Assembly: GCA_016722635.1 (NCBI GenBank)
Contig: JADKIX010000003.1
Span: forward strand, 155,543 to 219,542
Length of the DNA: 64,000 nucleotides
Reading direction: 5' to 3'
From: Rhodospirillaceae bacterium
Lineage (GTDB): Bacteria > Pseudomonadota > Alphaproteobacteria > JAEUKQ01
Within the stretch, counting starts at the first letter, position 1; each line of letters begins with the position of its first letter. Positions 1,299-53,436 of this stretch are shown here, one piece after another. The notes under the pieces are model-generated. The model did no database searches. It saw only the letters and a list, made by a program, of their open reading frames with translations, and had not been told where the DNA came from. Both the position numbers and the translations under genes were made by a program.

Positions 1299-2627
1299 TT
1301 ACAAAAAAGTAAGCGCTTTACCAGCTGGATTGCCAATTAATTCGCCATTTTGCACCACAATATTCCCCCCCACAATGGTCGTGTCTGGATAACCTTTCAA
1401 ATTCATCCCCTCAAAAGGAGACCACCCACATTTACTGGCCAACCATTTCTTATCAATTTTCCATTTTTTCTTTAAATCAACCAATACCAAATCAGCATCA
1501 TAACCCTTAGCGATTAAGCCTTTATTGTGAATACCAAATATTCGGGCAGAATTGCTGCTGGTCAATTGAACCAATTTTTCGAGTGATAACCGACCCAAAT
1601 TATAGTGGTTAAGCATCAAAGGCAATAATGTTTGGACGCCTGGCATGCCCGACGGGCTTTCCGCATAGGGACGTTTTTTTTCCTCCAAACTATGGGGGGC
1701 ATGATCGGAGCCTATCATATCGACTGTACCATCCTTTATTCCCTGCCATAACCCTTGTTGATGAATTTCATCCCGAATAGGTGGATTCATACGGGCGTAA
1801 TTTCCCAATTGCTCATAACAATCAGGTGCAACCAATGTTAAATGTTGGGGGGTAACCTCAACCGTTGCCAGATTACGGTAATTTCCTAAAATGGCTATTT
1901 CATCTTTGGTTGTAACATGCAAAATATGGACAGCTTTGTTCAGTTCTTTCGCAAAACTTAAAATCTTGCTCGTGGCTATAGTAGCTGTTAAAACATCACG
2001 CCAAATAGGGTGAGTTATTGCCGTCGAATCTTTGGTAACCAAGTATTTTCTTTCCTGCAAGCGCACTTCATCTTCCGCATGAAAGGCGACCCTTTTTTTA
2101 GTTACCCTTAAAATTTCTTTGATCAATTTGTCTTCAGAAACCAATAAATTTCCGGTTGAACTGCCAATAAATACCTTAATACCACAGCATCCAGGGACTT
2201 GTTCAAGCTCTGGTAATATATGTATATTATCAACTGTTGCACCACCATAAAAAGCAAAATTGGCCCAACTTTTTTTTGCCGCCCGGGACAATTTATCTTG
2301 AAGGTTAGTTATAGAAACGGTTGAAGGATTGGTGTTAGGCATTTCAAAATAACTGGTAACACCCCCTAAAACTGCTGCCGCGCTGCCTGTCGATAAATCT
2401 TCTTTATATTCATATCCCGGTTCCCGAAAATGCACTTGTGTGTCAATGATGCCAGGAATGATATGCAATCCTTTAGCATTCAAAAATGCAAAAGATTTAG
2501 CTGATGATAGATCGCCAATTTCGACTATTTTTCCATCTTTTATACCAATATCAACTTCAGCAATGCTAGCAACGACAAGCATTTTGGCTTGCCTAATAAC
2601 AAGATCATAACCGCTCTTTATCGCCAT
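1299..2627 (-). CDS. pyrC: dihydroorotase-like cyclic amidohydrolase
   Basis: 442 aa; DTQVHFREPG metal-binding motif and overall amidohydrolase layout typical of class I dihydroorotase/allantoinase family. Confidence 0.6.
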   Translation of the reverse strand: MAIKSGYDLVIRQAKMLVVASIAEVDIGIKDGKIVEIGDLSSAKSFAFLNAKGLHIIPGIIDTQVHFREPGYEYKEDLSTGSAAAVLGGVTSYFEMPNTNPSTVSITNLQDKLSRAAKKSWANFAFYGGATVDNIHILPELEQVPGCCGIKVFIGSSTGNLLVSEDKLIKEILRVTKKRVAFHAEDEVRLQERKYLVTKDSTAITHPIWRDVLTATIATSKILSFAKELNKAVHILHVTTKDEIAILGNYRNLATVEVTPQHLTLVAPDCYEQLGNYARMNPPIRDEIHQQGLWQGIKDGTVDMIGSDHAPHSLEEKKRPYAESPSGMPGVQTLLPLMLNHYNLGRLSLEKLVQLTSSNSARIFGIHNKGLIAKGYDADLVLVDLKKKWKIDKKWLASKCGWSPFEGMNLKGYPDTTIVGGNIVVQNGELIGNPAGKALTFL

Positions 2628-2852
2628 AAATCACCTGATGGATACGTTTTCAGCTAAATTTAACCCATTGTAGCACAATCATAATCAATTAAATTTTTCT
2701 TTGCATGAAATAAATTTCTGAACCTAAAATAAAAAACACCTGGTAGTAAAATTAAGAATCATTCATGTTTTTTAGCTGATTATTTAAGGCTCTATTTTGG
2801 CTTTTTATGCTTACTTCGGGCCCTTTAATAAAGCAGTTTAAATACACTGTTA

Positions 2853-3866
2853 TTGGGAGTATCAGAAATGTTAAAAAGATTGTTAATTGTTGCTACCACA
2901 TCTATCGTTGCATCTTCTTATGCCTTTGGACAAACGACAAAAACAACCACTACTGTAACAACCACTTCACAAACATCTGAAAATAATAGCTCAACCCAGG
3001 CTCAACCTCGTTTTATATTTTCTTTAGAGGGTATTTATACCATGACCCGTACAAATGAAATTGAGTATGGTCGTGTTGGGTTGTTTAATCCCCAGTCACG
3101 TAATATTTCTTTGGATAAAGGCTGGGAGATTAGAGGTACGGCCAGTTTCCGTCTTGATAATAATATTGAAATAGGACTTGGTTTGGGTTGGTCAAGACTA
3201 AATCCGGTTAAAGATAGTGGGCCAGGTGGATTCCTCGCTAGCGTCAATTTAGATCCTGATGTAACAATACCCGCAATTTTTTCAACCGGGACTCAGGCTA
3301 AATTAAAAGAAAGCCATTACGTGGTTGATGCCCAATTAGCATTTCCACTTGCTTTTAACTCTTTTAAGTTGAAAATTTTTGGTGGTATTCGGTATGCAAA
3401 TTTTGATGAAAAAATTAACGCCTCAGCCACTGCGTTATTTGGGTTGGTCAATATTGCCCAACAAAGAAAACAAGATTCCTGGGGAATTGGTCCACGCGTA
3501 GGGGTAGCTTTTGAGATGCCCATTTCATCGGGTGGTTTGAGTCTTGTGGGTGACTTTGGTGCCGCCGCTTTGTTTGGCAATCATAAAACCAAAACCAACA
3601 CAACCCTAAGTTTGTTAGGATTTCCGATCATCAATAGATCAGTTGCACAAAAAGACAATAGAACAGTTTATTCTTTGGAAGGTAATCTTGGTTTAGCATA
3701 CAATTTCGGTCAGTCTGGAATACAGATTGCTTTAGGGTACCATTTTGAAAGTTGGGTTAATGTTGATAATACCCAGACACGTCGTGTGGGTGGTTCGTTA
3801 GTTGGTGAAAAACAAAGCGATCGGCTACAGCATGGCCCATTTCTAAAAGTATCTTTTGGATTCTAA
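2853..3866 (+). CDS. outer-membrane beta-barrel (porin-like) protein with Thr-rich N-terminal linker
   Basis: Signal peptide (likely true start near 2868, MLKRLLIVATTSIVASSYA), alternating amphipathic beta-strand pattern, C-terminal aromatic F; followed by rho-independent terminator. Confidence 0.6.
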   Translation: MGVSEMLKRLLIVATTSIVASSYAFGQTTKTTTTVTTTSQTSENNSSTQAQPRFIFSLEGIYTMTRTNEIEYGRVGLFNPQSRNISLDKGWEIRGTASFRLDNNIEIGLGLGWSRLNPVKDSGPGGFLASVNLDPDVTIPAIFSTGTQAKLKESHYVVDAQLAFPLAFNSFKLKIFGGIRYANFDEKINASATALFGLVNIAQQRKQDSWGIGPRVGVAFEMPISSGGLSLVGDFGAAALFGNHKTKTNTTLSLLGFPIINRSVAQKDNRTVYSLEGNLGLAYNFGQSGIQIALGYHFESWVNVDNTQTRRVGGSLVGEKQSDRLQHGPFLKVSFGF

Positions 3867-8050: not shown

Positions 8051-8851
8051 TTACGTTAATAAGTAATGGGATAGTTCTGTGTAATATTGGACAACTGGCC
8101 CCAAAATAATAATCGCGGGTGGGATAAGGGTTAACATATGTGCAGAACAATCATTTAAAAAATCTTCAATATTAATAACTAGAATCTTTTGATTATGGTT
8201 TGAAGCATGCCCGATAATGGCAATGGGATGATGCTTGCTATATCCACTTTGAATAAGGCAATGAAGGATGGCAGGTAAATTCTGCAACCCCATGTAAATA
8301 ACCATCACGGGGGGGGCAAGGCCAGTGGCAAAATTTTTTAATAACCCCTCTAATTCTTTAGATAAGATATGGCCGGTGACAAACGTTACGGACGAATTTT
8401 CTTCCCTAATAGTTAATGGAATAGGCATTGCAGCTGCGGCGGCAAGGGCTGCTGTAACCCCGGGTATAATATAAAAATGGATTTTTGCTTTTGCGAGCGT
8501 CAGTAATTCTTCACCCCCTCTTGCAAAAATGAGTGGATCTCCACCTTTTAAACGCAGTACTTTATTGCCTTGTTTTGCCCAATCAATTAATTTTTGTGAG
8601 ATATCCGATTGATTAGCGGAAGGTTTCCCCCCTCTTTTCCCAGCAAAATGTAATTTAGCTTTTGAAGGGGCCAGTTTTAAAATTTCTTCCGAAACCAAAG
8701 CATCATACACGATAATATCAGCTTCTTGTATGGCTTTATAGGCAGCAATAGTTAAAAGCGAAGGATCGCCAGGGCCCGCACCCACCAACCACACATTTCC
8801 AGCTTTAAAAATTGGCTTAAAAGGTACGTTTGAGAAAGTTTTTTCTACCAT
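8051..8851 (-). CDS. cobA: uroporphyrinogen-III C-methyltransferase (SUMT)
   Basis: 266 aa; VWLVGAGPGDP and tetrapyrrole methylase motifs. Confidence 0.75.
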   Translation of the reverse strand: MVEKTFSNVPFKPIFKAGNVWLVGAGPGDPSLLTIAAYKAIQEADIIVYDALVSEEILKLAPSKAKLHFAGKRGGKPSANQSDISQKLIDWAKQGNKVLRLKGGDPLIFARGGEELLTLAKAKIHFYIIPGVTAALAAAAAMPIPLTIREENSSVTFVTGHILSKELEGLLKNFATGLAPPVMVIYMGLQNLPAILHCLIQSGYSKHHPIAIIGHASNHNQKILVINIEDFLNDCSAHMLTLIPPAIIILGPVVQYYTELSHYLLT

Positions 8852-9057
8852 TGCTCTTTGATCATTATTTATAAATTGATTTTAATTATTTTTATAACTT
8901 ATATCCCATGAAATCATAACAACTTAATAAGAATTTTTTTTATTGTTTGTTTATATTAAATTTTGTGTTACTGATTCGTCGGATGCTGATGATAGTTCGT
9001 TTAAGTTTAATTGCTTAGTAAAATCGTACTAGTGAATTAAAAATTAAGGGTGGTAAA

Positions 9058-9315
9058 ATGAAGAAGAATTTTGCACTCGTAGCTTCGGCTTTTGCTGCGG
9101 CTTTGATAGTGAATAGTGTAACCCCGGTTATGGCGGAAGAAACTGCTCAGGAAAAATGTTATGGCATTGCCAAAAAAGGCAAAAATGATTGCCAAACAGC
9201 CAAATCTTCCTGCGCTGGCACTTCTACCCGTGATAGTCAAGGTGATGCTTGGATATATGTGCCAAAAGGAACATGCGAAAAAATAGTCGGCGGTAGTTTA
9301 ACTTTAAAGAAATAA
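9058..9315 (+). CDS. bufA: DUF2282 bufferin-type RiPP precursor peptide (Sec signal peptide, 4-Cys core)
   Basis: 85 aa; signal peptide ending VMA/EE; core [29 protein letters not shown] with conserved Cys spacing; strong SD AAGGGTGG; directly upstream of DUF692/DUF2063 genes. Confidence 0.75.
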
Positions 9316-9362
9316 TTGTTTTTCTAATTTCAATTAATCTAACTTAGATCTCAACAATAAGG

Positions 9363-9611
9363 ATGATAAAAATGAATAAATTATTAATTGCTTCTGCTAT
9401 CAGTGCTGCTTTTGCTTTAAGTGCCTGTACAACGACAGATAATAAAGCACATATGGAAAAGTGCATGGGCATTGCCAAAAAAGGCATGAATGACTGCAAA
9501 ACTGCTCTGCACGCATGTGCTGGCAAATCAACTGCTGACAAACAAGCCACTGATTGGATTTGGTTGCCAGAAGGCACTTGTGCTAAAACGGGTGGTAAAT
9601 TAAATAGGTAG
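9363..9611 (+). CDS. bufA: second DUF2282 bufferin-type precursor paralogue with lipoprotein signal (LSAC lipobox)
   Basis: 82 aa; lipobox L-S-A-C then TTT; core EKCMGIAKKGMNDCKTA..ACAGKST..GTCAK matching paralogue 1 residue-for-residue at the Cys motifs; SD AAGGA 8 nt upstream. Confidence 0.75.
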   Translation: MIKMNKLLIASAISAAFALSACTTTDNKAHMEKCMGIAKKGMNDCKTALHACAGKSTADKQATDWIWLPEGTCAKTGGKLNR

Positions 9612-9649
9612 TTTCAACTTAATTTTTAGTTGAATATGGAGGGAGATAT

Positions 9650-10495
9650 ATGGAAAATGATACCTATTCTCCCCCGCCTGTTTATGGTGCCGGAATAGGG
9701 TTGAGATATCAGCATCATGAAGATGTCTTACATAGTAAGCCCCGGATTAATTGGCTTGAAGTTCATAGTGAAAATTATTTTGGCGGCGGCTTAGCACTTG
9801 ATTATCTGAAAAAAATTCGTCTCGATTACCCAATCAGCCTGCATGGCGTTGGCCTTTCTCTTGGTTCTGCTGACAACCTATCACAGACCCATTTAGAAAA
9901 ATTTAAGCAATTAATTCATATTATCTCCCCTGCTTTGGTTTCAGAACATTTATCCTGGAACATCATTAATGGCGTTTATTTAAATGATTTAATTCCAACC
10001 CCTTATACCGATGAAGTGTTGGCCATTGTTTCTCGTCATGTTGATGAAACACAGAACTATTTCAAACGACAGATCTTAATTGAGAACCCCTCAACTTATT
10101 TAGAGTTCAATGTGGCCGATTACTCGGAAGCTGATTTTTTATCGGCCCTCGTTAAAAAAACGGGGTGTGGCTTATTACTTGATGTTAATAATATTTTTGT
10201 TAGTAGCAAGAATCATCGGTTTGATGCGAATGAATATTTACTGAAAATTCCAGTTGAAGCGGTTAAAGAAATTCACTTAGCAGGCCATACCAAAAAACAA
10301 TTCAAAAAAATTTCCATTCTGCTAGATGATCATGGCAGTAAAGTGGATGATGAAGTATGGGCCTTATACCAGCGTACACTACAAATAATGGGCCGAAAAC
10401 CTACTTTAATTGAGTGGGACAGCAACATCCCGGCTTTGAATGTAATATTAGAGCAAGCACGTATCGCAGAAAGTTATCTGGAGCGTGAGAACTAA
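9650..10495 (+). CDS. bufB: DUF692 (UPF0276) MbnB-like iron enzyme, predicted precursor-Cys-modifying enzyme
   Basis: 281 aa; N-terminal GAGIGLRYQHHEDVL..INWLEVHSENYFGGG typical of DUF692/MbnB TIM-barrel family; SD GGAGG. Confidence 0.75.
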   Translation: MENDTYSPPPVYGAGIGLRYQHHEDVLHSKPRINWLEVHSENYFGGGLALDYLKKIRLDYPISLHGVGLSLGSADNLSQTHLEKFKQLIHIISPALVSEHLSWNIINGVYLNDLIPTPYTDEVLAIVSRHVDETQNYFKRQILIENPSTYLEFNVADYSEADFLSALVKKTGCGLLLDVNNIFVSSKNHRFDANEYLLKIPVEAVKEIHLAGHTKKQFKKISILLDDHGSKVDDEVWALYQRTLQIMGRKPTLIEWDSNIPALNVILEQARIAESYLEREN

Positions 10496-10497
10496 TC

Positions 10498-11277
10498 ATG
10501 GAATTTATCAAGATCCAACAGCTATTCTTGCGGTATATTTTGTATGGGGAATATCACCCATCTTTAGATAAATTAATTAAAGGTGATATTATAAACCCTA
10601 TGGAGCGTCTTAATATTTACCGCAATAATACCTTCATTAGCTTACAAGAATGTTTGAAGTCCACTTTTCCCGTATCGCAGCAAATTCTTGGGGAAAAGTT
10701 TTTTACCCAAGCAGCTAGAAAATACATTATTGATTTCCCGCCAACCAATGGTTGTTTGATATTTTATGGGGAAAATTTTTCAAAATTTTTATCTTCCCTG
10801 ATAGAAATTAAGGATTGGCCCTATATCATTGATGTTGCATCTTTTGAATATGCGATGCAGCAATCTTTTTATGCAGAAGATTATCCAGTCTTAACAGCGG
10901 AAGATCTCTCCTTAATACCAGCAGAAAAATACGGCGACCTAGTGCTGAATTTTCAGCCTTCCTTGCAATTGATTCAATCGTTTTATCCTATTGATGACAT
11001 CTGGTCTATTCATAATGATCATTCAATCGAGCAAATGGTTGAATTGAAAATTATTAAGGCAAAGAACCCTGAAAACTATTTGGTTTACCGGCTAAATAAT
11101 ACAGTTTATTTTGAGAAAATTGATCAAGATGAGGCAGGTTTTATTCAGCATTTGAAACAAGGTATGACTTTTGAAAAAGCGTTTTCTGTTATCTCCAATA
11201 TTTACCCGAATTTTAATCTGACCAAAACGATCCGACGGTTGATCCAGTTTCAAGTCCTAACTAGTTATAATACTTAA
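10498..11277 (+). CDS. bufC: DUF2063 (MbnC-like partner) protein
   Basis: 259 aa; starts 3 nt after bufB stop; family invariably partnered with DUF692. Confidence 0.65.
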   Translation: MEFIKIQQLFLRYILYGEYHPSLDKLIKGDIINPMERLNIYRNNTFISLQECLKSTFPVSQQILGEKFFTQAARKYIIDFPPTNGCLIFYGENFSKFLSSLIEIKDWPYIIDVASFEYAMQQSFYAEDYPVLTAEDLSLIPAEKYGDLVLNFQPSLQLIQSFYPIDDIWSIHNDHSIEQMVELKIIKAKNPENYLVYRLNNTVYFEKIDQDEAGFIQHLKQGMTFEKAFSVISNIYPNFNLTKTIRRLIQFQVLTSYNT

Positions 11278-11295
11278 ATGAGGGAGTAGCTGATA

Positions 11296-11763
11296 ATGGA
11301 AGAACCTTCTCCGCCTTCAGTCAGGTGCCACAAAAATTTTATATTAAGTTTTTATAAAATATTAGAAATGATACCGGAAGCGATACCAGCTTTTATCCTA
11401 AGATTAGGGGTTTCATTAGTTTTTTTTCGCTCCGGTTTAGCCAAGCTACAAGAAAATAGTTGGGCTTTATCGCAACAAACCATATTTTTGTTCCGCGATG
11501 AATATCATATGCCATTTCCCGAGCTAACTGCTTATGTAGCTGCATCGGTTGAACTGTTTGCACCCTTAATGCTGTTATTTGGTATAGGTAGTCGTATAGC
11601 TGCCGCCGCCATGTTAGGAATGACCCTGGTAATCCAGATATTTGTTTACCCGGAAAGTTACCCTGATCATTTAATGTGGTTAGGCCCTTTACTATATATT
11701 GTCCTCCGTGGTCCAGGCGGTCTATCCTTTGATTATTTATTTCGTAAAACTATCGATAAATAA
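11296..11763 (+). CDS. DoxX-family membrane protein
   Basis: 155 aa, 3-4 TM helices, DoxX-like; SD GAGGGAG; last gene of the operon; true start may be the internal Met (MIPEA...). Confidence 0.6.
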   Translation: MEEPSPPSVRCHKNFILSFYKILEMIPEAIPAFILRLGVSLVFFRSGLAKLQENSWALSQQTIFLFRDEYHMPFPELTAYVAASVELFAPLMLLFGIGSRIAAAAMLGMTLVIQIFVYPESYPDHLMWLGPLLYIVLRGPGGLSFDYLFRKTIDK

Positions 11764-11795
11764 ACATCATGAGATTTTTTGATATTTTATTGAAG

Positions 11796-12551
11796 TTAGA
11801 CACTAGCCTGGACGAAAAAAATGGAAAGCTGCTGCAGCATTGATTTGGTATCGGCTATTGCTTGATCAATATGAATATTGTTTTTTCCCCGAAAAACAAT
11901 ATTTGTCATAGGCTTGCTGTTTTGCAGGAAAGGATAACTTCCAATATCAACATCTTGGTATTTATCCTGGATAGTTTGAAGTTCACCTGCAATTTTGCTT
12001 TCCCCGCTTTCAACTTTGAGCACTATAGAAACAATCGGGTTTCCTTGAATTAACGTTGGCAGAACATTATGTAACATCGCCTGCATAATAATGGGAACAC
12101 CTGCAAAAACATACACATTATTTAACTTAAATCCCGGCGCAGCGCTGATTGGGTTATCAATTAATTCGGCACCTTCTGGAAGGCAGGCCATTTTAAGCCT
12201 GGCATTATTCAATGATTCCGAATTGTAATATTTTTCTAAAATTTGCTTGGCTATAGGATTTAGAATGACTTTTCGCCGGAACGCTTCAGCAATTGATTCC
12301 GTGGTAATATCGTCATGTGTCGGCCCTATACCCCCGGTTGTGAAAACATAATTATATTTCATGGATAATTCTTGTACGGTCGCAATAATGTTGGATTTAA
12401 CATCAGGAATTACCCTCACTTCACGGAGATATATCCCCTTTTCTGCCAGTTTTATAGCAATGTATTGAAGGTTCGTATCTTGGGTACGCCCAGATAATAT
12501 CTCATTGCCAATAATGATAATTGCCGCTTCAATTTTTTTTGTTTCAGGCAT
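11796..12551 (-). CDS. CinA-like/MoaB-type molybdopterin-binding (MoCF_biosynth) domain protein
   Basis: 251 aa; IIIIGNEILSGRTQDTN and TTGGIGPTHDD motifs. Confidence 0.65.
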   Translation of the reverse strand: MPETKKIEAAIIIIGNEILSGRTQDTNLQYIAIKLAEKGIYLREVRVIPDVKSNIIATVQELSMKYNYVFTTGGIGPTHDDITTESIAEAFRRKVILNPIAKQILEKYYNSESLNNARLKMACLPEGAELIDNPISAAPGFKLNNVYVFAGVPIIMQAMLHNVLPTLIQGNPIVSIVLKVESGESKIAGELQTIQDKYQDVDIGSYPFLQNSKPMTNIVFRGKNNIHIDQAIADTKSMLQQLSIFFVQASV

Positions 12552-30526: not shown

Positions 30527-31876
30527 TTAACGAAGTCTTTTCGTGAATCGCAACCTGATCGGCACACCACGCATATCAAATTCATCCCGCAATCTGTTCA
30601 CAAGATATTTTTGATAGGATTCCGGAAGATTTTCTGTCAGGTTTGATAATATCATGAGTGTTGGCGGGCGGGTACTGGTTTGTTTAATAGCCTTAATATT
30701 CCATTGACGCCGGCTTACAAGCGGTGGCGGCATATTATCAATTGATTGACCCAACCATTGATTTAGTTGTTGATTCGTGAAAGACATGTTCCAAACATCG
30801 TAAATCTGAATAACTTCTTGAAGCAATAATTCTAAATTAAAAGAGGTTTTTGCTGAAACAGGCACAAAACGTATCCCCCTGCTCTGAGGAAGAGAATTTT
30901 CTAATTTTTTACGGAAATTAACCATAAAACTATTCTTGTCGGAAATAAGATCCCATTTATTTAAAGCAATAATAAGGGCTTTGCCTTCTTTCTCCGCTTG
31001 ATTAGCGATTGATAAATCTTGTCCTTCCAATCCCGAATTAATATCAACAACCAGGACAACAATATTTGCTTGTTTAATGGCTTTTTCAGTTTCGTCAGTT
31101 GAAATTCTCTCAAGTTCATCAAGAACTTTTGCCTTTTTCCGTAACCCGGCTGTATCGATTAATTCCAATTGATGACCACGATAGTTCCATTTTAGCCAAA
31201 TGGTATCCCGGGTTGTTCCTGCTTCCGGGCTGGTAATAAGCCTTTCTTCTTTAAGAAAGGCATTAATTAAGCTCGATTTACCAACATTCGGCCTACCAAT
31301 AATGGCTAATTTAATTGGAAAAACTTTTTTTTCTTCAGCGTTCAGTGCAATCGATAAAGAAGGGGAAGCTGTTAAGAATTTTTGATAACCTTGATAAATT
31401 GTCTGGTAAAGATCTGCTAAGCCAAGGCCGTGCTCTGCCGAAACAAACAACCCTTCCCCTAAACCAAGGTTATTTAAAGAGGATATTAAATCCGGGTCTA
31501 TTTTTCCTTCAATTTTGTTGGCAACCGCGCGGATCGGCTTTGAAAGTTTCCGTAACCGGTTAGCAATATCCCTATCCTCACCAATGACCCCCACCCGGCC
31601 GTCAACAACAAATAGTATTAAATCTACATTCTTTAAAACATCCCAGCTAATCGTTTGGGCTTTAGCAGATAAGGGGCTAGAAAAATGATTTTGGAAACCA
31701 GCCGTATCAACCAGTTTAAACTCCATATCCCCCCAACTGACAGTTTCTTCTTGCCAGTCACGGGTAACGCCCGGCTGATCATATACAATGGCGGCTTTAT
31801 GGCCAACTAATCTATTAAAAAGTGTCGACTTGCCGACATTCGGTCTGCCAACGATGGCAACAGTAAAATGAGTCAT
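30527..31876 (-). CDS. der: ribosome biogenesis GTPase Der (EngA)
   Basis: Two tandem GTPase domains (GRPNVGKST twice) plus KH-like C-terminus. Confidence 0.9.
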   Translation of the reverse strand: MTHFTVAIVGRPNVGKSTLFNRLVGHKAAIVYDQPGVTRDWQEETVSWGDMEFKLVDTAGFQNHFSSPLSAKAQTISWDVLKNVDLILFVVDGRVGVIGEDRDIANRLRKLSKPIRAVANKIEGKIDPDLISSLNNLGLGEGLFVSAEHGLGLADLYQTIYQGYQKFLTASPSLSIALNAEEKKVFPIKLAIIGRPNVGKSSLINAFLKEERLITSPEAGTTRDTIWLKWNYRGHQLELIDTAGLRKKAKVLDELERISTDETEKAIKQANIVVLVVDINSGLEGQDLSIANQAEKEGKALIIALNKWDLISDKNSFMVNFRKKLENSLPQSRGIRFVPVSAKTSFNLELLLQEVIQIYDVWNMSFTNQQLNQWLGQSIDNMPPPLVSRRQWNIKAIKQTSTRPPTLMILSNLTENLPESYQKYLVNRLRDEFDMRGVPIRLRFTKRLR

Positions 31877-32028: not shown

Positions 32029-33423
32029 TTATTTAAAAGCTATGATAGTGCCATTCTTCATTGTTAATAACATAATGTTGTTAACAATAATCGGAGCCAT
32101 AACGAATCCATTATTGATTTTTTGCTTTGATATCAAATGGCCATCTTGGGGAGAAAGATAAAGAATTTCCCCAACCGAATTGGTGATGATAAGATTTTCC
32201 TGTGCAATAACCGGCCCAAACCACTGAATATCCTGCCGTGTCTGTTTTTTATCCAAAAAATCAGGCAAAGATTTAGACCAATAGACGCGCCCACTGCCAC
32301 GTTGAACAGCCAGCAATTCCTTACGGTCAGTTAAAATAAACAAATGATCCCCTGCTATCCAAGGCGTCTGGTCAGAGCCAATCTGCAATTCCCACTGACG
32401 CCCTCCCCGTATGAGATCAAAAGCTACCAATAACGAATTATGGTTAATGACCAGTACTAATTCCTTATCAATGATAACCCCTGCTTTAACGCTGCTAAGA
32501 TTAGCAACCGACCCACCAAATTTGGAGGCGCTAATGCTGTCAGTCCACAACAACTGGCCGGTCTCTGCCCTTAACCCGAATATTTCCCCTGAATTAAATG
32601 CCACAACCACTATGTCTCCGGCAACAGCAACCGCCGGTGATCCAACCAATGTTGGATTTTCTTGTGAGCCTTTATAAAACCATAAAATACCGCCAGTATC
32701 TTCTTCTAGAGCAACCAAACGGCCGTCCATAGTGGTAATGAAGATTTTTTTATTATATAAGACAGGACTAGAATGAATAGGAGCCGCAAGATATGTTGCC
32801 CATAGTTTTTTCCCATTTTTAGCATCAAGAGCTATTATTTTGCCAAAAGGACTTGCGAGATATAGTGTCAGCCCATCTTCCTTTACGGATAATCCTACCC
32901 CCGTAAATTCATCTGTTTCCCCGTAAATTTTTAAATTCAGCCGCCATTTAATTCTTCCCGTACCTAAATCAAGGGCTGAAACAAACATATTACCATTGAC
33001 GATGAAGACGCTGTCATTCGCTACCACAGGCCCAGTTAATAAAAAATGTCGCCCGTCTTGCCCAAGGCCAATATTAGTCCGCCAAAATTCTTTAGGTTGG
33101 TCCGTAAAAGATAAATGATCAGGATTATGGCTTGCATTTGCATGAAACTGGGGCCAGTTTACTAAATTTTTCGGAGATGGCAAAATAATCTTTGTATGAG
33201 CCAATTCCCGATCACCTTCCGTACGACCTAATTCTTGTAAAACATCGATTCGTTCGCCCGGCAAATGGGGTTGTTTCTTCTCAGCACCCCACCAACCACA
33301 AGCTGATAATGTCAATAAAAACAGGCCTGATACAACCCAACCCTTGCAATGACTTCCCATTAACGAACCTTTCATCTTCAAATCTGAATTAATCATTCCA
33401 AACGCCCTAATTAGATTATTCAA
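32029..33423 (-). CDS. bamB: outer-membrane assembly lipoprotein BamB (PQQ-repeat beta-propeller)
   Basis: Lipobox LTLSAC; PQQ-like repeats; yfgM-bamB-der synteny; true start probably at internal Met (about 33375). Confidence 0.8.
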   Translation of the reverse strand: MNNLIRAFGMINSDLKMKGSLMGSHCKGWVVSGLFLLTLSACGWWGAEKKQPHLPGERIDVLQELGRTEGDRELAHTKIILPSPKNLVNWPQFHANASHNPDHLSFTDQPKEFWRTNIGLGQDGRHFLLTGPVVANDSVFIVNGNMFVSALDLGTGRIKWRLNLKIYGETDEFTGVGLSVKEDGLTLYLASPFGKIIALDAKNGKKLWATYLAAPIHSSPVLYNKKIFITTMDGRLVALEEDTGGILWFYKGSQENPTLVGSPAVAVAGDIVVVAFNSGEIFGLRAETGQLLWTDSISASKFGGSVANLSSVKAGVIIDKELVLVINHNSLLVAFDLIRGGRQWELQIGSDQTPWIAGDHLFILTDRKELLAVQRGSGRVYWSKSLPDFLDKKQTRQDIQWFGPVIAQENLIITNSVGEILYLSPQDGHLISKQKINNGFVMAPIIVNNIMLLTMKNGTIIAFK

Positions 33424-34075
33424 TTGTTTTTAACAATTCCGTTAACCGCCGACGCATATTAACAGGAGCGTTCGGATTGTCTATTATCCTTATAATCCCC
33501 TGCTTGGCCTCTAAGATTTGCCCAAGTTTCAGATGAAGCAAGATTCGCACCTCATTAATGGATAGGGCTAAAGCAAGAGGGGTGGGAGCTTTTAAAGACT
33601 TTTCCAAGGTTCTATTCATGTCGGCTAAGCTATCGGCATTTATTTCCGGCATTCCAATAAGCAATAAAGCCTGTTTGATCATGGATAGTTGACGGTAGGG
33701 ATAAAATACCCCTTGATCTTCGCTAATACCCTTATAAAGATTGATCGCTGCTTCTAGCTTACCCGATTTAACACGCAAAGCTGCTAATTCAAACCTTGCC
33801 AGCATAGAGTAGCCGTCTTCATACTTCACCAGATTTAGTAATAAATCTTCAGCGTTGGTGTAATTCCCGGAGGCAATGATGTCTTGTGCATTTTGATATA
33901 TTATTGCCCTTTCATACTGTCGGTTTTCCTGCTGTTGCCGCCACCAAACCAGAATAACAGTTAGTAAGATGATCGCTAAAATTATCGTTAGAAGCCAAGA
34001 TCCGTATTTCTTCCAAATTTTAGACATTTGGTCACGACGGATATCTTCTTCAATTTCTCTAAAAATTTCATTCAA
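33416..34075 (-). CDS. yfgM: YfgM-like membrane-anchored TPR protein
   Basis: N-terminal TM then TPR-like helices; located upstream of bamB-der. Confidence 0.6.
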   Translation of the reverse strand: MNEIFREIEEDIRRDQMSKIWKKYGSWLLTIILAIILLTVILVWWRQQQENRQYERAIIYQNAQDIIASGNYTNAEDLLLNLVKYEDGYSMLARFELAALRVKSGKLEAAINLYKGISEDQGVFYPYRQLSMIKQALLLIGMPEINADSLADMNRTLEKSLKAPTPLALALSINEVRILLHLKLGQILEAKQGIIRIIDNPNAPVNMRRRLTELLKTIE

Positions 34076-46027: not shown

Positions 46028-48151
46028 TTATAAAGCATGTTCTTTCAGCCATATCTCAACTGTGTAAGATTGGTTGTCGCTGTCCATAACTGTAATTCTC
46101 GCAAAACCAACATCTGCGGGAGTCCAAGATATTTTACGCCGATACCTAGGAAAATCGATTTGTTGCCCATTAACAAACCATAAAAAAGGTGGCTTTCCTC
46201 CACTTATTTCCAACATAATTGATTCGATTGCCGGTTGGGTCTTAACTTCAACAACGGACTTATCAAGCGGAAAATCAATTTTTATTTGATTGGCTTGAGA
46301 ATATAAACTGTTTAAAGACACGACGTTTTTTTTGTTATTAAAAAATTTTAACGCTGTGGGTAGGTCTTCCCACTTTATTTCTTGAAAATTATCAGGTTTT
46401 TTAGGTGAGCTTGAAGACAAAACAGGAAGCTGGTTAAAAACATCAAATAAAATTGGTGCAGCTTCTTCCCGGCCAATTTGATAAGGGGAAAAAGATCCAT
46501 CCGGTCTTCCCACCCACACCCCAACCGTATAATCCTGATCATACCCAATCGCCCAAGCATCCCTAAACCCATAAGAGGTGCCCGTTTTAAAGGCCACCTC
46601 CCGCCCCTGTTTCAAATATTTGGCCGCTATCATCCCTGGGGGCGAAGGGCTATCTTGCAAAATTTGCCGTATATACCATGCGGCAATGTCACCCATCAGC
46701 CTTACCCCTTCTGTTGCGGGGATTACAGGCGCATAATTTAAAGGCTTAACCCAACCATCATTAGCAAAACCAGTATAAAGGGTTACCAATTGTTCCAAAT
46801 TAATACCAATTCCACCCAAAGCAATTGGTAATCCCGCCCGCTGAACACCTGGTGGCAAATGAAAAACAATGCCAGATTTCTTAAGAATTTCTAAGAAATG
46901 GTCTGGCCCAAGCCGTTCAAGTATTAATACAGCAGGAATATTTAAAGATAATTGTAGCGCTTTTCTAGCATTAACATTTCCATGAAAATTTCGATCGAAA
47001 TTTTGCGGCGCATAATCTCCAAAACGGACAGGCGCATCATTGATCAATGTTTCCGGATGTAGAAAAAGTTGATCGAAAGCAATCCCATAAATTAAAGGTT
47101 TTAAAGTTGAACCAGGGGAACGAATGGCGCGAACCATATCATTTTGTCCAAGAATTTTTGGGTCATAGAAATTCCCAGAGCCAACATACGCTCGTACCAA
47201 CCTTGTTTTATTTTCTACCACCAAAATAGCTAATGTTGCCCCATTTTGCAGAAACGTTTGTTTGTTTTGTGCCAACTGTTCAACACTTGTCTGAATATTA
47301 ATATCCAAAGAGGTGGGAATAATCTGAAGAAGCGCTGATTTTTCTGCTGCTTTATATAACCGATAAGATAAATGGGGGGCTAGCCTTGGTACATTAAATC
47401 GGCGATAGGGTAAAGTTTGCGCTTGCCCTTGCATTGCCTCGTCTTTGGTCAACGCATCCGCTTTTGCCAATTTATCTAAAACAAAATCCCGAATAAGTTT
47501 TGCCTTTTCTGGGAAACGATCTGGACGGGTTGACTCGGGTGATTGTGGCAAGCCTATCAGTAAGGCAATTTCCGCATCACTAAGCACGAAGGGTTCCTTA
47601 CCAAAATATAATAAAGAAGCAGCGCGAAGCCCCTGAATATTACCTCCATAAGGGGTTAAATTCAGGTACATTTCCAAAATCTCTTGCTTGCTATATCCTA
47701 ATTCTAATTGCACGGCCCGAAACATTTCAACGATTTTTGATGCAAAATTACGCGGGCGAGGTTCAAGCAACCTAGCCGTTTGCATGGTAATAGTCGATGC
47801 CCCTGAAACAATTCTGCCGTTTGTTACTAATTGCCAACTAGCCCTCAAAAGAGCAATAGGATCAATCCCTGGATGTTGAAAAAACCTTTTGTCTTCAACC
47901 ACTTGTAAGAAGCGAACAAATTTAGGATCAATTTTATCTACCTTAACAGGCAGTCGCCAATATCCGTTTTTGGTTTGATAGATATGAATTGGCTGGCCCT
48001 GATAATCCGTTACGATCACGGAATATTCCTGCAGCTTTGTCGTATCAAGCGGAAATATGAAATTTAAAATAAAGAAAACAAGCCCTGTTAAAAACAGGGC
48101 TTTTAAGACTTTAGAATATACTCGTAAAATGTTAATAAAAATCCACATCAT
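46028..48151 (-). CDS. pbpC: penicillin-binding protein 1C (transglycosylase-transpeptidase)
   Basis: 707 aa; GT51 motifs plus transpeptidase SxxK; paired with alpha-2-macroglobulin gene. Confidence 0.8.
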   Translation of the reverse strand: MMWIFINILRVYSKVLKALFLTGLVFFILNFIFPLDTTKLQEYSVIVTDYQGQPIHIYQTKNGYWRLPVKVDKIDPKFVRFLQVVEDKRFFQHPGIDPIALLRASWQLVTNGRIVSGASTITMQTARLLEPRPRNFASKIVEMFRAVQLELGYSKQEILEMYLNLTPYGGNIQGLRAASLLYFGKEPFVLSDAEIALLIGLPQSPESTRPDRFPEKAKLIRDFVLDKLAKADALTKDEAMQGQAQTLPYRRFNVPRLAPHLSYRLYKAAEKSALLQIIPTSLDINIQTSVEQLAQNKQTFLQNGATLAILVVENKTRLVRAYVGSGNFYDPKILGQNDMVRAIRSPGSTLKPLIYGIAFDQLFLHPETLINDAPVRFGDYAPQNFDRNFHGNVNARKALQLSLNIPAVLILERLGPDHFLEILKKSGIVFHLPPGVQRAGLPIALGGIGINLEQLVTLYTGFANDGWVKPLNYAPVIPATEGVRLMGDIAAWYIRQILQDSPSPPGMIAAKYLKQGREVAFKTGTSYGFRDAWAIGYDQDYTVGVWVGRPDGSFSPYQIGREEAAPILFDVFNQLPVLSSSSPKKPDNFQEIKWEDLPTALKFFNNKKNVVSLNSLYSQANQIKIDFPLDKSVVEVKTQPAIESIMLEISGGKPPFLWFVNGQQIDFPRYRRKISWTPADVGFARITVMDSDNQSYTVEIWLKEHAL

Positions 48152-48174
48152 GGTAGATGGCTTACATCATTTCC

Positions 48175-51100
48175 CTATTTTTGAAGCTTAAAAGGGTTAA
48201 TGATTATTTTTAAGATTTCTCCACGCGCCCGAATTTCAGGTTGATACATGGCCTCAATTTGTACCGCTGGCAGCATATAAGTGCCAGGGGTAATAACACG
48301 GGCCATATAGGCAACTTTAAATTTCTGACCTTCTTGCGTTGTTAAAGCCGCTACAAACCGGTCATCCAAATATTCCACATGGTCAAGCACCGAGATATCA
48401 TCCTTTAACCATTCAATATCTTTTAAGGAATTAGTATTTGCCAAACGGGAATTTTCCAATTCCAGCCCAGCTGGCAACAAATCAACAATTAGGGTTTGAT
48501 TCCAAGGTTTATGCATTGCCATCCCTTCAATAACCACTACCACGATATCGGTTTGCTTCATATTAGACAGCTCAATTTCTTTCCCGTCTAAATCATAAAA
48601 CCTTTTACTGATGATGAACCCATTTGATAGGGCAGGCAGCGGTTGAACAGGTACACCGGTAACACTAGCGGCCACCCACATTGGGCTGCCAGCATTCGTT
48701 ACCGAGAACCCTTGCTTGCTTAAATCCGCAAAACTTTGGTTAGGCAAGCTGGGTTTCAGCCCGCTCATCTTCTGCGATTGATTAACAACCACGTTTAAAG
48801 GCTCATTTTCTCCTGCCAAAGAACGGGCAGCCATAACCAGCCATACCTGCTCCTGTGTGCTTAAATAATAGCGTTTTTGCAGTAACCCAACCAAACGGTT
48901 TAGTTCGGTACTATAGTTAATGGTCGGCACTTTGCTTTCGCTGGTTAAAGAAATGATCGCGGCAAGATCACGGATAGAACTGCCATAATCAGCCCAAGAA
49001 GCAATATTGCCTTCATAACGCGCCAATGCCATTTTAAACCCGGCTGTTGCCCGTTCTTGATCGCCATAAAGCGATAAGGCAGCGGCAACATGGGCGATAG
49101 ATAAGGCATCCGGCAAAGTCTTTAGATATGTATCATAGAAATACTTAGCTGTCGAAATATCTCCAGCCCCCGTATAGGCCAAAACATATAAGGCATAAGC
49201 ACGGGAAGATAAGGCCGAAGAATTGGTCAATTGGTAATCCTCCGCATGTTTTGCCAACCACGATAGCCCTTGGCGGTAAGATAGATCAGGAACGGCAAAA
49301 CCTTTTGCTTTCGCCCTTGCCATAAACTCGATGACATAGGCCGACAACCAAGGTTCAGGATTCGAGCCGGATGACCATAACCCAAAACTACCGTCAAAAC
49401 GCTGCTTTTCTGTTAATAATTGTAAAGCCCGTTCAATTTTACCCTTAATTTCCTCAGGATTATCCGTAATACCCACATCCCATTTCTGGGCAAGCTCAAA
49501 TAAATATACTAATGGTAAAGCACGGCTGGTTATTTGTTCTAAACAACCATACGGATAACGATCCAGTTCATCTAATAAACCAGCCACATCAAAATTAGGC
49601 CTGTTACTGATCGAAGGTTTAAAGGAAACCGTTTCAGGTACAAACCTTGTAAAATAGCTGGCTTCCAATTTAAAACTTTCACCCGTATTAAGTAATTGAA
49701 CCGTCCGCTCGGTTTGGGCGGCTTGGGCAGAACGAATACGGATGGCGAATTGACGTTCCAAGCTAAAGCCATTAGGCCCCTCAACCTTTAATTTGATGGA
49801 AGCAACACCTAACTTATCGGCTTGGACGGCGATTACTTGGTTAATTTGTTGGGACTGATTGAGCTCGGTTTGAAAAACCGCTTGTTGCTCACTCAGCTGG
49901 ATCTCTTTCCCTGGGCTGGTGAGCGATATTTTATATAACCCAGGAAGGGCATCCATATTTTGGATGGACAGGACAAACTGACTTTTATCCCCTAATGCCA
50001 AAAATCTTGGCATATTCATCGTTGTAACCAACGGCGAACGCACAATAAGGTTAGCACTGGCAGAGCCCACCTTATCTTGGGTATGCACAACCGCCATAAT
50101 CCTGAGTTTGCCATTATAATCCGGCAAATCAAATTTAACAGCGGCATTCCCTTGGGCATCTACCTGCACCATCCCAGAATACAAAGCAACCAGTTTAACT
50201 AGGGAAGGTGCGCCTTTTTCAGCTGACGCATCCCCACCCTCACGAATCTGTCCCCGACGCCTAGACTTTCCGTCAATCAATTGGCCGTATAAATCACGTA
50301 GATCAACCCCCAGCATCCGTCGGCCAAAAAAGTACTGAAGCGGATCGGGACTTACGAAATCCGTCAGGCTTAAGACCCCTTCATCGACAGCGGCCACCGT
50401 TATAAAAGCGGGCTGGCCATTTTGAAGCCCGGAAACTTTTACAGGAATAGTTATCTGTTGATTAGGTTCAACCTTGTCTGGAACACTGATGCTAACCCCA
50501 ATTTTATAAACATCTTTATTTAATCCCAACCAAGCAACTCCAATTGCACGGCCAGGACCTTTATCAGCCGTACTGCCAGGACGGAAAGCAGTGGCCACAA
50601 TATATGCCCCTGCGCCCCAATCTTTACTGACAGGGATTTCAACCACTACACCTTCTGGGGAAACAGCAACATTTTGGCTGCTAATGATTTTATCTGTTGC
50701 CACATTTAACAAAAGCTCGCCCTTAAATGGGGCGCGAATGGATATTTTTGCTTTTTCACCGGGTAGATAGGATGGTTTATCCGCGGCAATCTCTAATTTA
50801 TCCGGGGTATCCGCACTTTCTAGACCCCACCCCCAACCCGCATATAAGCGTATGCTGGAAGCGGATGTACCCTCTTCATTAAAAACTTCCAGGCGGTAGC
50901 GTCCCCAGCCAAATTTTGTTGATAAAATAGCAGGTGCATTTTCTGAACCCGACAACTTCCCGCTACCTACTTCTTCTTCTTGGATGGAGACTTTATAATC
51001 CCAATATCCAGAGTGATAAAACCATTGATAACGATAGTTTTCTTTTACCAAACGCCATTTTAGGTTGTCAAAATTCTGCTGTTTGCCATTTTGGCCAACC

Positions 51101-53436
51101 AAAATAACCTGGAAATCAGCCACGCTATTTTCAGTAACATCCGCCCCTTTATTTGATTTGATGCCAATCAACGGATGTATTCCCCTAACTGGGAACGTCA
51201 ATGAGCGCATGACAGGCCGACCGCTGGGTTCAATAACCGATACGCTTAATTGTGCCTGAAGCGGTTGCTGGCTATCTGGCAATTGGAGAGGTAAAGAAAT
51301 ATTGGCTGTGCCATCCTTTTCTGTAGTGGTGGCTTCGGTTTGAACGATGACGGATTTAAAAGGTTCTTCAACCAACCCAAACTTATAGCCAGCAAATTCC
51401 GGGTATGGATCAGAATTTTGTTTGAAAACAATTTGTGTTTTAGCAACCAAATCCGCAGCTGGCGCACCATATAAATAGTCCGCTTTTAAGCTCACTGCGT
51501 AATTTTTATTGGGTTGAACGATGATATCTTTAAAATCCGCAGCTAAGCTGACTTCTAATTGGGCCGGTATTACTTCTTCAACCAAATAGCTAACCGTACC
51601 CACGGCGTCGCTTTTTGGATCAACATACCCTAAAACCCGCCAACGGCCTGTCAAACTATCTGTATTGGTAGGAATAGAAACTTCATATCCCCCAATCCCA
51701 CGGTCATTCACGACGAATTGGCTAGCCAAAACACCGTCCGGGCGGATAATTTGTAAAATCAAAGGAAGTTTGGTAGCGGCCAACCCTTGATTATTCCTTA
51801 ATAACCCGGCTAAGCGGATTGTTTCCCCTGGTCTGTAAACCCCACGATCCGTATAAAAATACAGATCATAATTTTTTGTATAAGAACGGCCGTTGACCCC
51901 ACGGTCACTTAAGTCAAAAGCAGCTTTGTTTAAATCCAGGAAAGAAAAATCATCGGCTTTGGCCGAGGTCATCATCACCATAGCAGGCGATCTGCCGCCT
52001 TGGCCCAACATAACCCCTGAGGCAAAGGTGGCTACCCCATCATTATTGGTCGTTACTTCTGCCAATTGCTCATTGTTGGTTGCATATAACTGAACTTTTA
52101 CTCCGACAGCTGCCTTACCCGTTTCTAAAGAACGGGCTGCAACCGTCAAGCCATTATCACTGCTGTACGTACTGATGCCTAAATCAGTGACAATAATCCA
52201 CTGGGTTGCCAAGGAATAATAATCTTCTTCCTCCCCCGCAGATGCCTGATCTTTCATTCCATTTTTATTTACCACCGATTTACCAGCAGTTAAAATATAA
52301 ACGCCTGGTTTCAACTGGTTCTTTACCATCTCTAATAAGGGGATGGAGGTAGTAACCCGTTGATTTTTTTGGCTTTCGATGGTGACTGTACCGTTCCAAA
52401 CAAGTTCGCCATACCGGTCAGATATTTCAGTCACATTATATTTTGCAATGTTGGCAAGAAAGTTATAACTGACAAAATCGTTTAACAGATTGCGATCATT
52501 AATCCGTAACAACTTTAAATAGGCTTCGTTATAATTTACAGAAATTAGAGGGACACCCGTACTGCCAATTTTGGGCAAAACATAGGCAGCATTTTTAAAG
52601 CCCAGGGAAAATGAACGGTCCGCCGCTGCAACATCTAACGTCCGATTTCTGGACAAGCCTTCGCCAGCCGAATTAGGCAATCCTTTTAAAAGATTAATTT
52701 TATATGCTTTCCCGTAAGCCAACCCGTCAATACATAATGATTTTTCATTTTGAACGGTGACGGAAAATTTTACCGTTGGCTCAACACGGATATAATCAGA
52801 CCATCTCACCGTATGAATGGTTGATAAATTGTCATTAAAATTGATACAAGCTTGCCGCTCATCCCCCACTTCAACGGTTGTAATGTTTTTGGGGTTGAAT
52901 TCTAAAACTTCTTTTAAATCATTGATTTTCTTAGCGATAACGGTATTGAACTTAAGTTCATTCGCTTTTGTGTACAACTCAAGCGCTTCTTTAGCGCTCG
53001 ATTGGGTATTTTCTTTTATGAGCAAATCGGCAATTTTAATCAAAGCGGCAGATTTTTCGGCATCCGTTAGATTAGTTGATAAATGATACAATTGGATATA
53101 AGAGGCAACCGCATAATAGGTATTGTTTATTTTTTCATATAGATTGGCTAGCTGTTGCCAGGTTTTCAGGTTTTTATCATCAACCTTTAAAGCCTTTTCG
53201 GTGTTTCTAATCGCCCCCGATATATCCCCTGCTTTTAAATCATTCTCTGCCTGTTTCAACCAATCATTAGCGCTGACATCAGCTACATTATTTCTTTTAA
53301 TCTTATCCATCAAATATTCGCTGCGACTTAACAAACTTTTGCTAAATATGTCATTTTGTGGCGGAACTTGACCCAAGCCTTCCGTACTGCCATACGTAAA
53401 AAGGATAAAGATAAAAAGAGAAATGATTTTTCTCAT
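48175..53436 (-). CDS. yfhM: bacterial alpha-2-macroglobulin family lipoprotein (YfhM-like)
   Basis: 1753 aa; Ig-like MG domains; thioester-domain region (CLEQ-like motif GCLEQITS present); operon with pbpC. Confidence 0.8.
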   Translation of the reverse strand: MRKIISLFIFILFTYGSTEGLGQVPPQNDIFSKSLLSRSEYLMDKIKRNNVADVSANDWLKQAENDLKAGDISGAIRNTEKALKVDDKNLKTWQQLANLYEKINNTYYAVASYIQLYHLSTNLTDAEKSAALIKIADLLIKENTQSSAKEALELYTKANELKFNTVIAKKINDLKEVLEFNPKNITTVEVGDERQACINFNDNLSTIHTVRWSDYIRVEPTVKFSVTVQNEKSLCIDGLAYGKAYKINLLKGLPNSAGEGLSRNRTLDVAAADRSFSLGFKNAAYVLPKIGSTGVPLISVNYNEAYLKLLRINDRNLLNDFVSYNFLANIAKYNVTEISDRYGELVWNGTVTIESQKNQRVTTSIPLLEMVKNQLKPGVYILTAGKSVVNKNGMKDQASAGEEEDYYSLATQWIIVTDLGISTYSSDNGLTVAARSLETGKAAVGVKVQLYATNNEQLAEVTTNNDGVATFASGVMLGQGGRSPAMVMMTSAKADDFSFLDLNKAAFDLSDRGVNGRSYTKNYDLYFYTDRGVYRPGETIRLAGLLRNNQGLAATKLPLILQIIRPDGVLASQFVVNDRGIGGYEVSIPTNTDSLTGRWRVLGYVDPKSDAVGTVSYLVEEVIPAQLEVSLAADFKDIIVQPNKNYAVSLKADYLYGAPAADLVAKTQIVFKQNSDPYPEFAGYKFGLVEEPFKSVIVQTEATTTEKDGTANISLPLQLPDSQQPLQAQLSVSVIEPSGRPVMRSLTFPVRGIHPLIGIKSNKGADVTENSVADFQVILVGQNGKQQNFDNLKWRLVKENYRYQWFYHSGYWDYKVSIQEEEVGSGKLSGSENAPAILSTKFGWGRYRLEVFNEEGTSASSIRLYAGWGWGLESADTPDKLEIAADKPSYLPGEKAKISIRAPFKGELLLNVATDKIISSQNVAVSPEGVVVEIPVSKDWGAGAYIVATAFRPGSTADKGPGRAIGVAWLGLNKDVYKIGVSISVPDKVEPNQQITIPVKVSGLQNGQPAFITVAAVDEGVLSLTDFVSPDPLQYFFGRRMLGVDLRDLYGQLIDGKSRRRGQIREGGDASAEKGAPSLVKLVALYSGMVQVDAQGNAAVKFDLPDYNGKLRIMAVVHTQDKVGSASANLIVRSPLVTTMNMPRFLALGDKSQFVLSIQNMDALPGLYKISLTSPGKEIQLSEQQAVFQTELNQSQQINQVIAVQADKLGVASIKLKVEGPNGFSLERQFAIRIRSAQAAQTERTVQLLNTGESFKLEASYFTRFVPETVSFKPSISNRPNFDVAGLLDELDRYPYGCLEQITSRALPLVYLFELAQKWDVGITDNPEEIKGKIERALQLLTEKQRFDGSFGLWSSGSNPEPWLSAYVIEFMARAKAKGFAVPDLSYRQGLSWLAKHAEDYQLTNSSALSSRAYALYVLAYTGAGDISTAKYFYDTYLKTLPDALSIAHVAAALSLYGDQERATAGFKMALARYEGNIASWADYGSSIRDLAAIISLTSESKVPTINYSTELNRLVGLLQKRYYLSTQEQVWLVMAARSLAGENEPLNVVVNQSQKMSGLKPSLPNQSFADLSKQGFSVTNAGSPMWVAASVTGVPVQPLPALSNGFIISKRFYDLDGKEIELSNMKQTDIVVVVIEGMAMHKPWNQTLIVDLLPAGLELENSRLANTNSLKDIEWLKDDISVLDHVEYLDDRFVAALTTQEGQKFKVAYMARVITPGTYMLPAVQIEAMYQPEIRARGEILKIIINPFKLQK

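Follow-up and report, generated by a model that had tools for sequence, protein, structure and literature searches.

The window, by which we mean the whole stretch of 64,000 nucleotides analyzed here, carries a locus that is, judged by its gene content and motifs, a Buf1-type bufferin gene cluster of the order bufA-bufA'-bufB-bufC-doxX, in which the two precursor paralogues have different export signals. Both precursors have a predicted N-terminal Sec-type signal, of the SPI type in precursor 1 and of the SPII (lipoprotein) type in precursor 2. The best explanation, to which we assign a probability of about 70%, is that one BufB/BufC pair supplies the same copper-binding fold in both a diffusible and a membrane-bound form.

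Gene content of the bufferin locus

All genes of the cluster are on the forward strand. Precursor 1, a BufA1-type DUF2282 protein of 85 amino acids (9058..9315, +; MBL0337800.1), matches PF10048 with an E-value of 1.9e-26. Precursor 2, a DUF2282 protein of 79 amino acids with a lipoprotein-type signal (9372..9611, +; MBL0337801.1), matches the same profile with an E-value of 7.6e-21. The two precursor genes are directly followed by bufB (9650..10495, +), which encodes an MNIO-family bufferin maturase (NF050167, 368 bits against a cutoff of 310; PF05114, E-value 2.9e-99). Next come bufC (10498..11277, +), encoding a DUF2063/HvfC-type partner (PF09836, E-value 4.1e-21; the NF050145 match is below the cutoff of that model), and doxX (11296..11763, +), encoding a BufD-like DoxX membrane protein (PF07681, E-value 3.4e-17). 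The cluster is tight, and precursor 2 is separated from bufB by 38 nt. In a promoter and terminator scan of positions 8700-12000, no convincing promoter was found upstream of precursor 1 and no terminator was found between the precursor genes and bufB. An AT-rich hairpin of 7 bp (UUCAACU…AGUUGAA, 9613-9634) lies between the stop codon of precursor 2 and bufB, and its folding energy is indistinguishable from that of shuffled sequence (z = -1.5).

With the DUF2282 profile (PF10048, gathering cutoff 22.4), precursor 1 scores 92.2 bits and precursor 2 scores 74.3 bits. The initial annotation had labeled precursor 2 as BufA2. The label is suitable for a positional second copy and unsuitable for a member of the six-Cys BufA2 family, because both precursors match the NCBIfam BufA2 model NF050166 only below its equivalog cutoff of 60 bits (32.7 and 39.2 bits). 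For the same reason we regard both as four-Cys paralogues of the Buf1 type. Their core cysteines are at residues 34, 45, 52, and 73 in precursor 1 and at residues 31, 42, 49, and 70 in precursor 2, and C31, C42, C49, and C70 are invariant columns in the alignments A1, A3, and A4. The two cores had been described as nearly identical at every Cys motif. All four cysteines do align, but the identity of the cores is 62%, lower than this wording suggests.

The DUF2282 core of precursor 2 spans residues 28-76 (9453..9599, +) as delimited by the Pfam envelope. In an AlphaFold2 model of precursor 2 calculated from a 32-sequence alignment, residues 1-21 have pLDDT values below 50 and residues 28-79 have values of 70-83. 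The modeled domain contains a strand at residues 28-32 with Cys I, a second strand at residues 62-66, and a helix at residues 69-73 with Cys IV, and this predicted arrangement agrees with the fold described for BufA1 (PMC11626156). In bufferin 1, BufB/BufC convert only Cys II and Cys III into 5-thiooxazoles; the reaction takes place in the cytoplasm and does not need the signal peptide (PMC11626156). Cys I and Cys IV form a disulfide, Cu(II) is bound in a 2N/2S manner, and the peptide protects against copper stress (PMC11626156). By homology to this system, Cys II and Cys III of precursor 2 (residues 42 and 49) would be the thiooxazole sites, and Cys I and Cys IV (residues 31 and 70) would form the disulfide.

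The surroundings of the central cysteines are not the same in the two precursors. Precursor 1 reads K-S-S-C before Cys III (9190-9215, residues 45-52) and has no counterpart of the His present in at least 90% of DUF2282 sequences. Its orthologues in L001, L004, and L005 likewise have no His before Cys III. Precursor 2 retains this near-invariant residue (H47). From these residues, the paralogues may differ at the metal site as well as in targeting.

The N-terminus of BufB (MENDTYSPPPVYGAG) is without a hydrophobic signal, indicating that the maturase is cytoplasmic. A precursor with a predicted SPII-type signal is found beside a signal-less maturase, and together with the leader independence of the modification (PMC11626156) this is the combination that marks a RiPP-lipoprotein hybrid.

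Export signals of the two precursors

The signal of precursor 1 is 26 residues long, has a polar, Pro-containing c-region, and ends in …NSVTPVMA/EETAQEKC (a slash marks the predicted cleavage site). These are SPI hallmarks, in line with the initial annotation, which had read a classical signal ending in TPVMA/EE. The second open reading frame that it had reported, at 9363-9611 (+), is also present and carries the lipobox L-S-A-C followed by TTT. Translated from 9363, precursor 2 has 82 amino acids and reads M(IKM)NKLLIASAISAAFALSAC/TTTDNKAHMEKC…; translated from 9372, it has 79 amino acids and reads MNKLLIASAISAAFALSAC/TTTDNKAHMEKC…. The start is likely the ATG at 9372 rather than the in-frame ATG at 9363, because an AAGGA Shine-Dalgarno sequence at 9359-9363 is located 8 nt upstream of 9372, because the 82%-identical orthologue P0002 begins with MNKLL, and because most database members of the cluster of precursor 2 have the 79-aa form. 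An exact look-up of the 82-aa form (P0001) returned no contig on record, and that of the 79-aa orthologue P0002 returned three contigs. The lipobox rule described below holds from either start.

The signal peptide of precursor 2 comprises residues 1-18 (9372..9425, +). According to the hydropathy profile, it consists of the n-region MNK, with Lys3, and an h-region of 13 residues (LLIASAISAAFAL) that leads straight into L-S-A-C with no polar c-region. The lipobox L16-S17-A18-C19 is encoded by TTA AGT GCC TGT (9417..9428, +). We used a PROSITE PS00013-type rule, in which six uncharged residues are followed by [LVI][ASTVI][GAS]C, the Cys is at position 15-35, and a Lys or Arg is among the first 7 residues. 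Precursor 2 agrees with the rule at every point: it has L16-S17-A18-C19, Lys3, and uncharged residues at positions 4-18. Cys19 is predicted to be the diacylglyceryl acceptor and the mature N-terminus, and an 11-residue tether (TTTDNKAHMEK; 9429..9461, +) connects it to core Cys I.

Cys19 is the fifth cysteine of precursor 2. It lies outside the folded domain, and the first core cysteine follows 12 residues later. The initial annotation had noted that its lipoprotein prediction would fail if the Cys of L-S-A-C were one of the modified core cysteines; the four core cysteines align with Cys I-IV of DUF2282, and the lipobox Cys is not among them. A role of Cys19 within the core or as a ligand was also considered and rejected, given its position outside the fold and its variable spacing in relatives.

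The rule is rarely matched in the window. When any start codon was allowed, 4 of the 150 ORFs of at least 60 aa agreed with it. Besides precursor 2, these were a BamB homologue (32029..33375, -; PF13360, E-value 2e-51; signal …LFLLTLSAC/GWW) and two evident false positives, namely a methionine aminopeptidase when a TTG start is used and an MlaE protein when an internal start is used. The BamB homologue is a classical outer-membrane lipoprotein that shares the identical L-S-A-C lipobox with precursor 2 and serves as an internal control. Its presence suggests, from its sequence, that the host has a lipoprotein pathway. No lgt, lspA, or lnt gene was found among the 35 window ORFs scanned for them. 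The gene for the BamB homologue is flanked upstream by a TPR_21 (YfgM-like) gene (33416-34075) and downstream by the gene for the GTPase Der (EngA; 30527-31876). Elsewhere in the window, which has a GC content of 39.5%, there are a Legionella_OMP family porin (2853-3866, +) and, at 46028-53436 (-), a bacterial alpha-2-macroglobulin of 1753 aa that adjoins a PBP1C-type penicillin-binding protein, a known conserved pair.

Two sites in the signal of precursor 2, A-F-A/L (residues 13-15) and L-S-A/C, are formally acceptable to SPI, as both fit the -3/-1 rule. Precursor 2 might then be a soluble bufferin cleaved by SPI at AFA/LS or LSA/C, with Cys19 either incidental or present as an extra thiol for metal binding or an intermolecular disulfide. 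We consider this improbable. The signal of precursor 2 has no polar or Pro/Gly-containing c-region, unlike that of precursor 1, and the lipobox of BamB is the very same LSAC. Two further observations against SPI cleavage come from the relatives of precursor 2 and are given below.

Conservation and recurrence of the lipobox

Orthologous clusters were recovered by a genome scan with the narrow alignment A2 and by contig look-ups. The loci L001-L005 are all ordered SPI-DUF2282, lipobox-DUF2282, BufB, BufC, and DoxX, and their precursor 2 orthologues are 97% (L004), 82% (L001-L003), and 61% (L005) identical to that of the window. The lipobox is LSAC in L004 and L001-L003 and LAGC in L005, in which the signal has diverged (MNKLLVSSIIAAAVSLAGC) but still ends in the consensus L-A-G-C. 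The competing SPI site A-F-A is replaced by A-A-V in L005, in which the lipobox is kept, and this counts against the soluble, SPI-cleaved alternative. At the codon level, Leu is encoded by TTA, TTG, or CTA, position -2 by AGT or GCT, position -1 by GCC, GCT, or GGC, and Cys by an invariant TGT. The Leu and Ala codons differ synonymously among the orthologues. Between the window and L005, the identity in the core is 59% for precursor 2 and 89% for precursor 1. Precursor 2 thus evolves faster than precursor 1, and for this reason the retention of its lipobox is informative. With every SPII sequence hallmark present and the lipobox kept in orthologues, the earlier prediction of precursor 2 as a lipoprotein is well supported at the level of sequence.

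The T-T-T at positions +2 to +4 (9429-9437) is kept in L001, L004, and L005, and Gly or Ser occupies +2 in the lipobox forms of other lineages. The conserved T-T-T might act in sorting or be a target of modification. The closest relatives of the window are unclassified alphaproteobacterial MAGs, among which one isolate is named 'MBR_AS', and the MAG from which the window comes is labeled Rhodospirillaceae; this family label may be loose in view of those relatives.

The same data bear on whether precursor 2 is a real gene. A mis-called ORF or a decaying duplicate pseudogene with a lipobox arisen by chance would be suggested by the small size of the ORF and by nothing else. The ORF is intact and has a good Shine-Dalgarno sequence, it is found on dozens of contigs, and the same architecture is present in at least four diverged relatives. 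The strong Pfam match and the low number of window ORFs that follow the lipobox rule point in the same direction. The conservation effectively refutes this alternative, and we give it next to no weight.

To place the lipobox form in its family, we consider three samples, and the frequency of the lipobox strongly depends on the sample. With the core of precursor 2 as the query, a full HMMER scan against 1.84 billion cluster representatives gave 874 matches (E-values up to 0.001). Among the best 150 of these 874 matches, which are 50%-identity representatives, 145 have the core motif, and in 15 of the 145 (~10%) the h-region is directly followed by a lipobox. At genome loci outside the clade of the window, the lipobox is present in ~2% of DUF2282 ORFs. 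The consensus-biased profile A1, built from a diverse 18-sequence alignment, found consensus-like SPI forms only, with a lipobox in 0 of 119. A single-sequence word-index search gave only 3 matches. A profile of 14 lipobox forms recovered 23 further 90%-identity clusters with lipobox-like signals, most of them canonical (LLTAC/G, LTGC/G, AAAC/S, and LSAC/G). Lipobox DUF2282 proteins are, on these sequence counts, a recurrent minority.

Outside the lineage of the window, we inspected 38 lipobox-like DUF2282 proteins. In every one of them the Cys is at the end of the h-region, its distance to Cys I ranges over 10-55 residues, and 33 of them have Gly or Ser at +2. The variable spacing, together with Gly or Ser at +2, is the behavior of a tether and not that of a structural or ligand cysteine. 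It is not what would be expected if precursor 2 were a soluble SPI product in which Cys19 acts as an extra thiol, and it favors the lipid-anchored reading.

The pairing of a soluble and a lipobox form is also found outside the clade of the window. In the Thiotrichaceae locus L070, the order is SPI-DUF2282, lipobox-DUF2282, BufB, BufC, and DoxX, the same as in the window. The two L070 paralogues share 82% identity, but their identity to the peptides of the window is only ~60%. As they are closer to each other than to the peptides of the window, the soluble and lipobox pairing arose independently in L070. The loci L011 and L087 have an SPI and lipobox DUF2282 pair with DoxX and without adjacent BufB/BufC. 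In all three Thiotrichaceae loci (L070, L011, and L087) the SPI-type and lipobox-type genes are adjacent, as in the window. Their tethers are 22-36 residues long, rich in Gly, Asp, Lys, and Thr, and have Gly at +2, different from the window tether with its 11 residues.

Other members of the family show further arrangements. In the MAGs of L026 (Thiotrichaceae; 1386-3100) and L071 (Cocleimonas; 2072-3091), BufB is preceded by a row of 4-5 DUF2282-like genes. In each MAG, two of the copies have 'GKGDGK' in place of 'NDC…C' and so lack Cys II and Cys III, and for this reason they could not be thiooxazole-modified. P0007, P0009, and P0010 are fused two-domain DUF2282 proteins of 174-198 aa with lipobox-like signals at their start. 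In L084 (3501-3851), L085 (3501-3845), and L086 (3501-3806), a lipobox DUF2282 gene stands as an orphan, and the encoded tether is long and rich in Ala, Glu, and Pro. No MNIO or DUF2063 gene is present within 3.5 kb of these three genes. One neighbor of the gene in L086 encodes an FGE-sulfatase domain protein.

Because several lipobox DUF2282 proteins are orphans without a nearby MNIO gene, such a protein is not necessarily a modified RiPP. Precursor 2 itself might be a lipoprotein that is a poor substrate or a non-substrate of BufB/BufC and stays unmodified, for example with a thiol-dependent metal or redox function at the membrane. The orphans in L084-L086, the presence of DoxX alone beside the pairs in L011 and L087, and the faster evolution of precursor 2 would fit such a role. 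However, the gene for precursor 2 sits immediately next to bufB in a tight cluster, and all four cysteines and the near-invariant His are retained in it. Moreover, BufB/BufC recognize the core and not the signal (PMC11626156), and a recent study shows NedA to be both lipidated and modified by a BufB/BufC-like pair (PMC13056109). We therefore see little likelihood that precursor 2 escapes modification, and we prefer the reading in which one BufB/BufC pair serves both precursors.

Proposed maturation and relation to known systems

In the preferred reading, thiooxazole formation, lipidation, copper binding, and the final membrane are steps that we infer, partly by homology and partly from motifs. 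The single BufB/BufC pair probably modifies both precursors in the cytoplasm. By homology, the two central cysteines of each would become 5-thiooxazoles, and both modified precursors would be exported via Sec. The routes would then separate. The motif in precursor 1 suggests that signal peptidase I cuts after VMA and releases a soluble periplasmic metallophore. The lipobox of precursor 2 suggests that Lgt attaches a diacylglycerol to Cys19, that LspA cleaves between Ala18 and Cys19, and that Lnt N-acylates the new N-terminus. Mature precursor 2 would have 61 residues and be held at the membrane by the 11-residue tether. With Thr and no Asp at +2, it would by default be transferred by the Lol system to the inner leaflet of the outer membrane. 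This default is that of the E. coli sorting rule, and the alphaproteobacterial MAG of the window might not follow it.

The initial annotation had proposed two compartments for the product, the periplasm and the membrane surface. This is imprecise: one form is predicted to be free and the other tethered to a membrane, but both would be in the periplasmic space. [quoted passage not shown]

Bufferins are a very large family of copper-defense peptides, and the site of the chelator decides what is protected and whether the copper is exportable. The diffusible and lipid-anchored pair may represent an adaptive division of labor with two or more origins, one in this alphaproteobacterial clade and another in Thiotrichaceae. 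We put this forward tentatively, and think the odds are against it. If it were true, the free form might, for instance, buffer the copper of the bulk periplasm, and the tethered form might guard the membrane surface or load copper into outer-membrane vesicles for disposal. The locus is in any case a compact natural pair, with the same enzymes and the same fold under two targeting signals, and could be used to test how the placement of a chelator matters.

The closest characterized system is bufferin 1 of Caulobacter vibrioides (Leprevost et al., PNAS 2024, PMC11626156). It has the same four-Cys DUF2282 precursor with an N-terminal Sec signal, and the MNIO, DUF2063, and DoxX genes of the BufA1/BufB1/BufC1/BufD1 cluster are in the same order as in the window. 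The predicted small fold is also shared: a beta-sheet whose first strand carries Cys I is combined with a helix that carries Cys IV. The C. vibrioides precursor has an SPI signal and gives a soluble periplasmic peptide, whereas in the window there are two precursors and an SPII lipobox is present in one. Unlike the C. vibrioides cluster, that of the window is without adjacent SigF/NrsF genes.

Lipidated relatives are already known in other branches, and the initial annotation, which was not aware of any described lipidated form, is largely superseded on this point. In Antoine et al. (Microb Genom 2025, PMC12452194), SignalP 6 predicts ~16% of the Buf2 bufferins to be lipoproteins that are anchored in the membrane after Sec export. 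This figure concerns the six-Cys Buf2 bufferins (BUF_6/12Cys), and the peptide of the window is a four-Cys DUF2282 protein (Buf1). Tandem precursor genes and membrane fusions of MerC and bufferin are also noted there. A second study (PNAS 2026, PMC13056109; preprint November 2025, bioRxiv PMC12636315) demonstrates two triacylated MNIO-modified RiPP-lipoproteins, DybA and NedA, in E. coli. As presented there, the cytoplasmic modification comes first and is followed by Lgt, LspA, and Lnt. NedA is related to copper and is matured by the BufB/BufC-like pair NedB/NedC, and the mined bufferins include SPII examples. The same study summarizes the +2 rule, in which Asp at +2 causes retention and Thr is not a retention signal. 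Because DybA and NedA undergo both processes, MNIO modification and subsequent lipidation are compatible (PMC13056109). The two differ from precursor 2 in their cores: DybA carries a ChrH-type macrocycle at the C-terminus, EGKCG repeats are found in NedA, and neither has the DUF2282 fold. They were produced in E. coli rather than in a native host, and a soluble paralogue as partner is not discussed in the main text of PMC13056109.

In the main texts of PMC12452194 and PMC13056109, we found no explicit statement on lipobox forms of DUF2282 (Buf1) bufferins, no description of a soluble and lipidated pair in one cluster, and no experimental lipidation of any DUF2282 bufferin. The locus could yield the first experimentally lipidated DUF2282 bufferin. 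Its value would be that of a test case and not of a discovery, because lipidated MNIO-modified peptides, including predicted lipidated bufferins, have already been published. Compared with these systems, what seems modestly new here, as read from sequence, is that a lipobox precursor of the Buf1 type stands in tandem with its soluble paralogue and that this pairing recurs independently.
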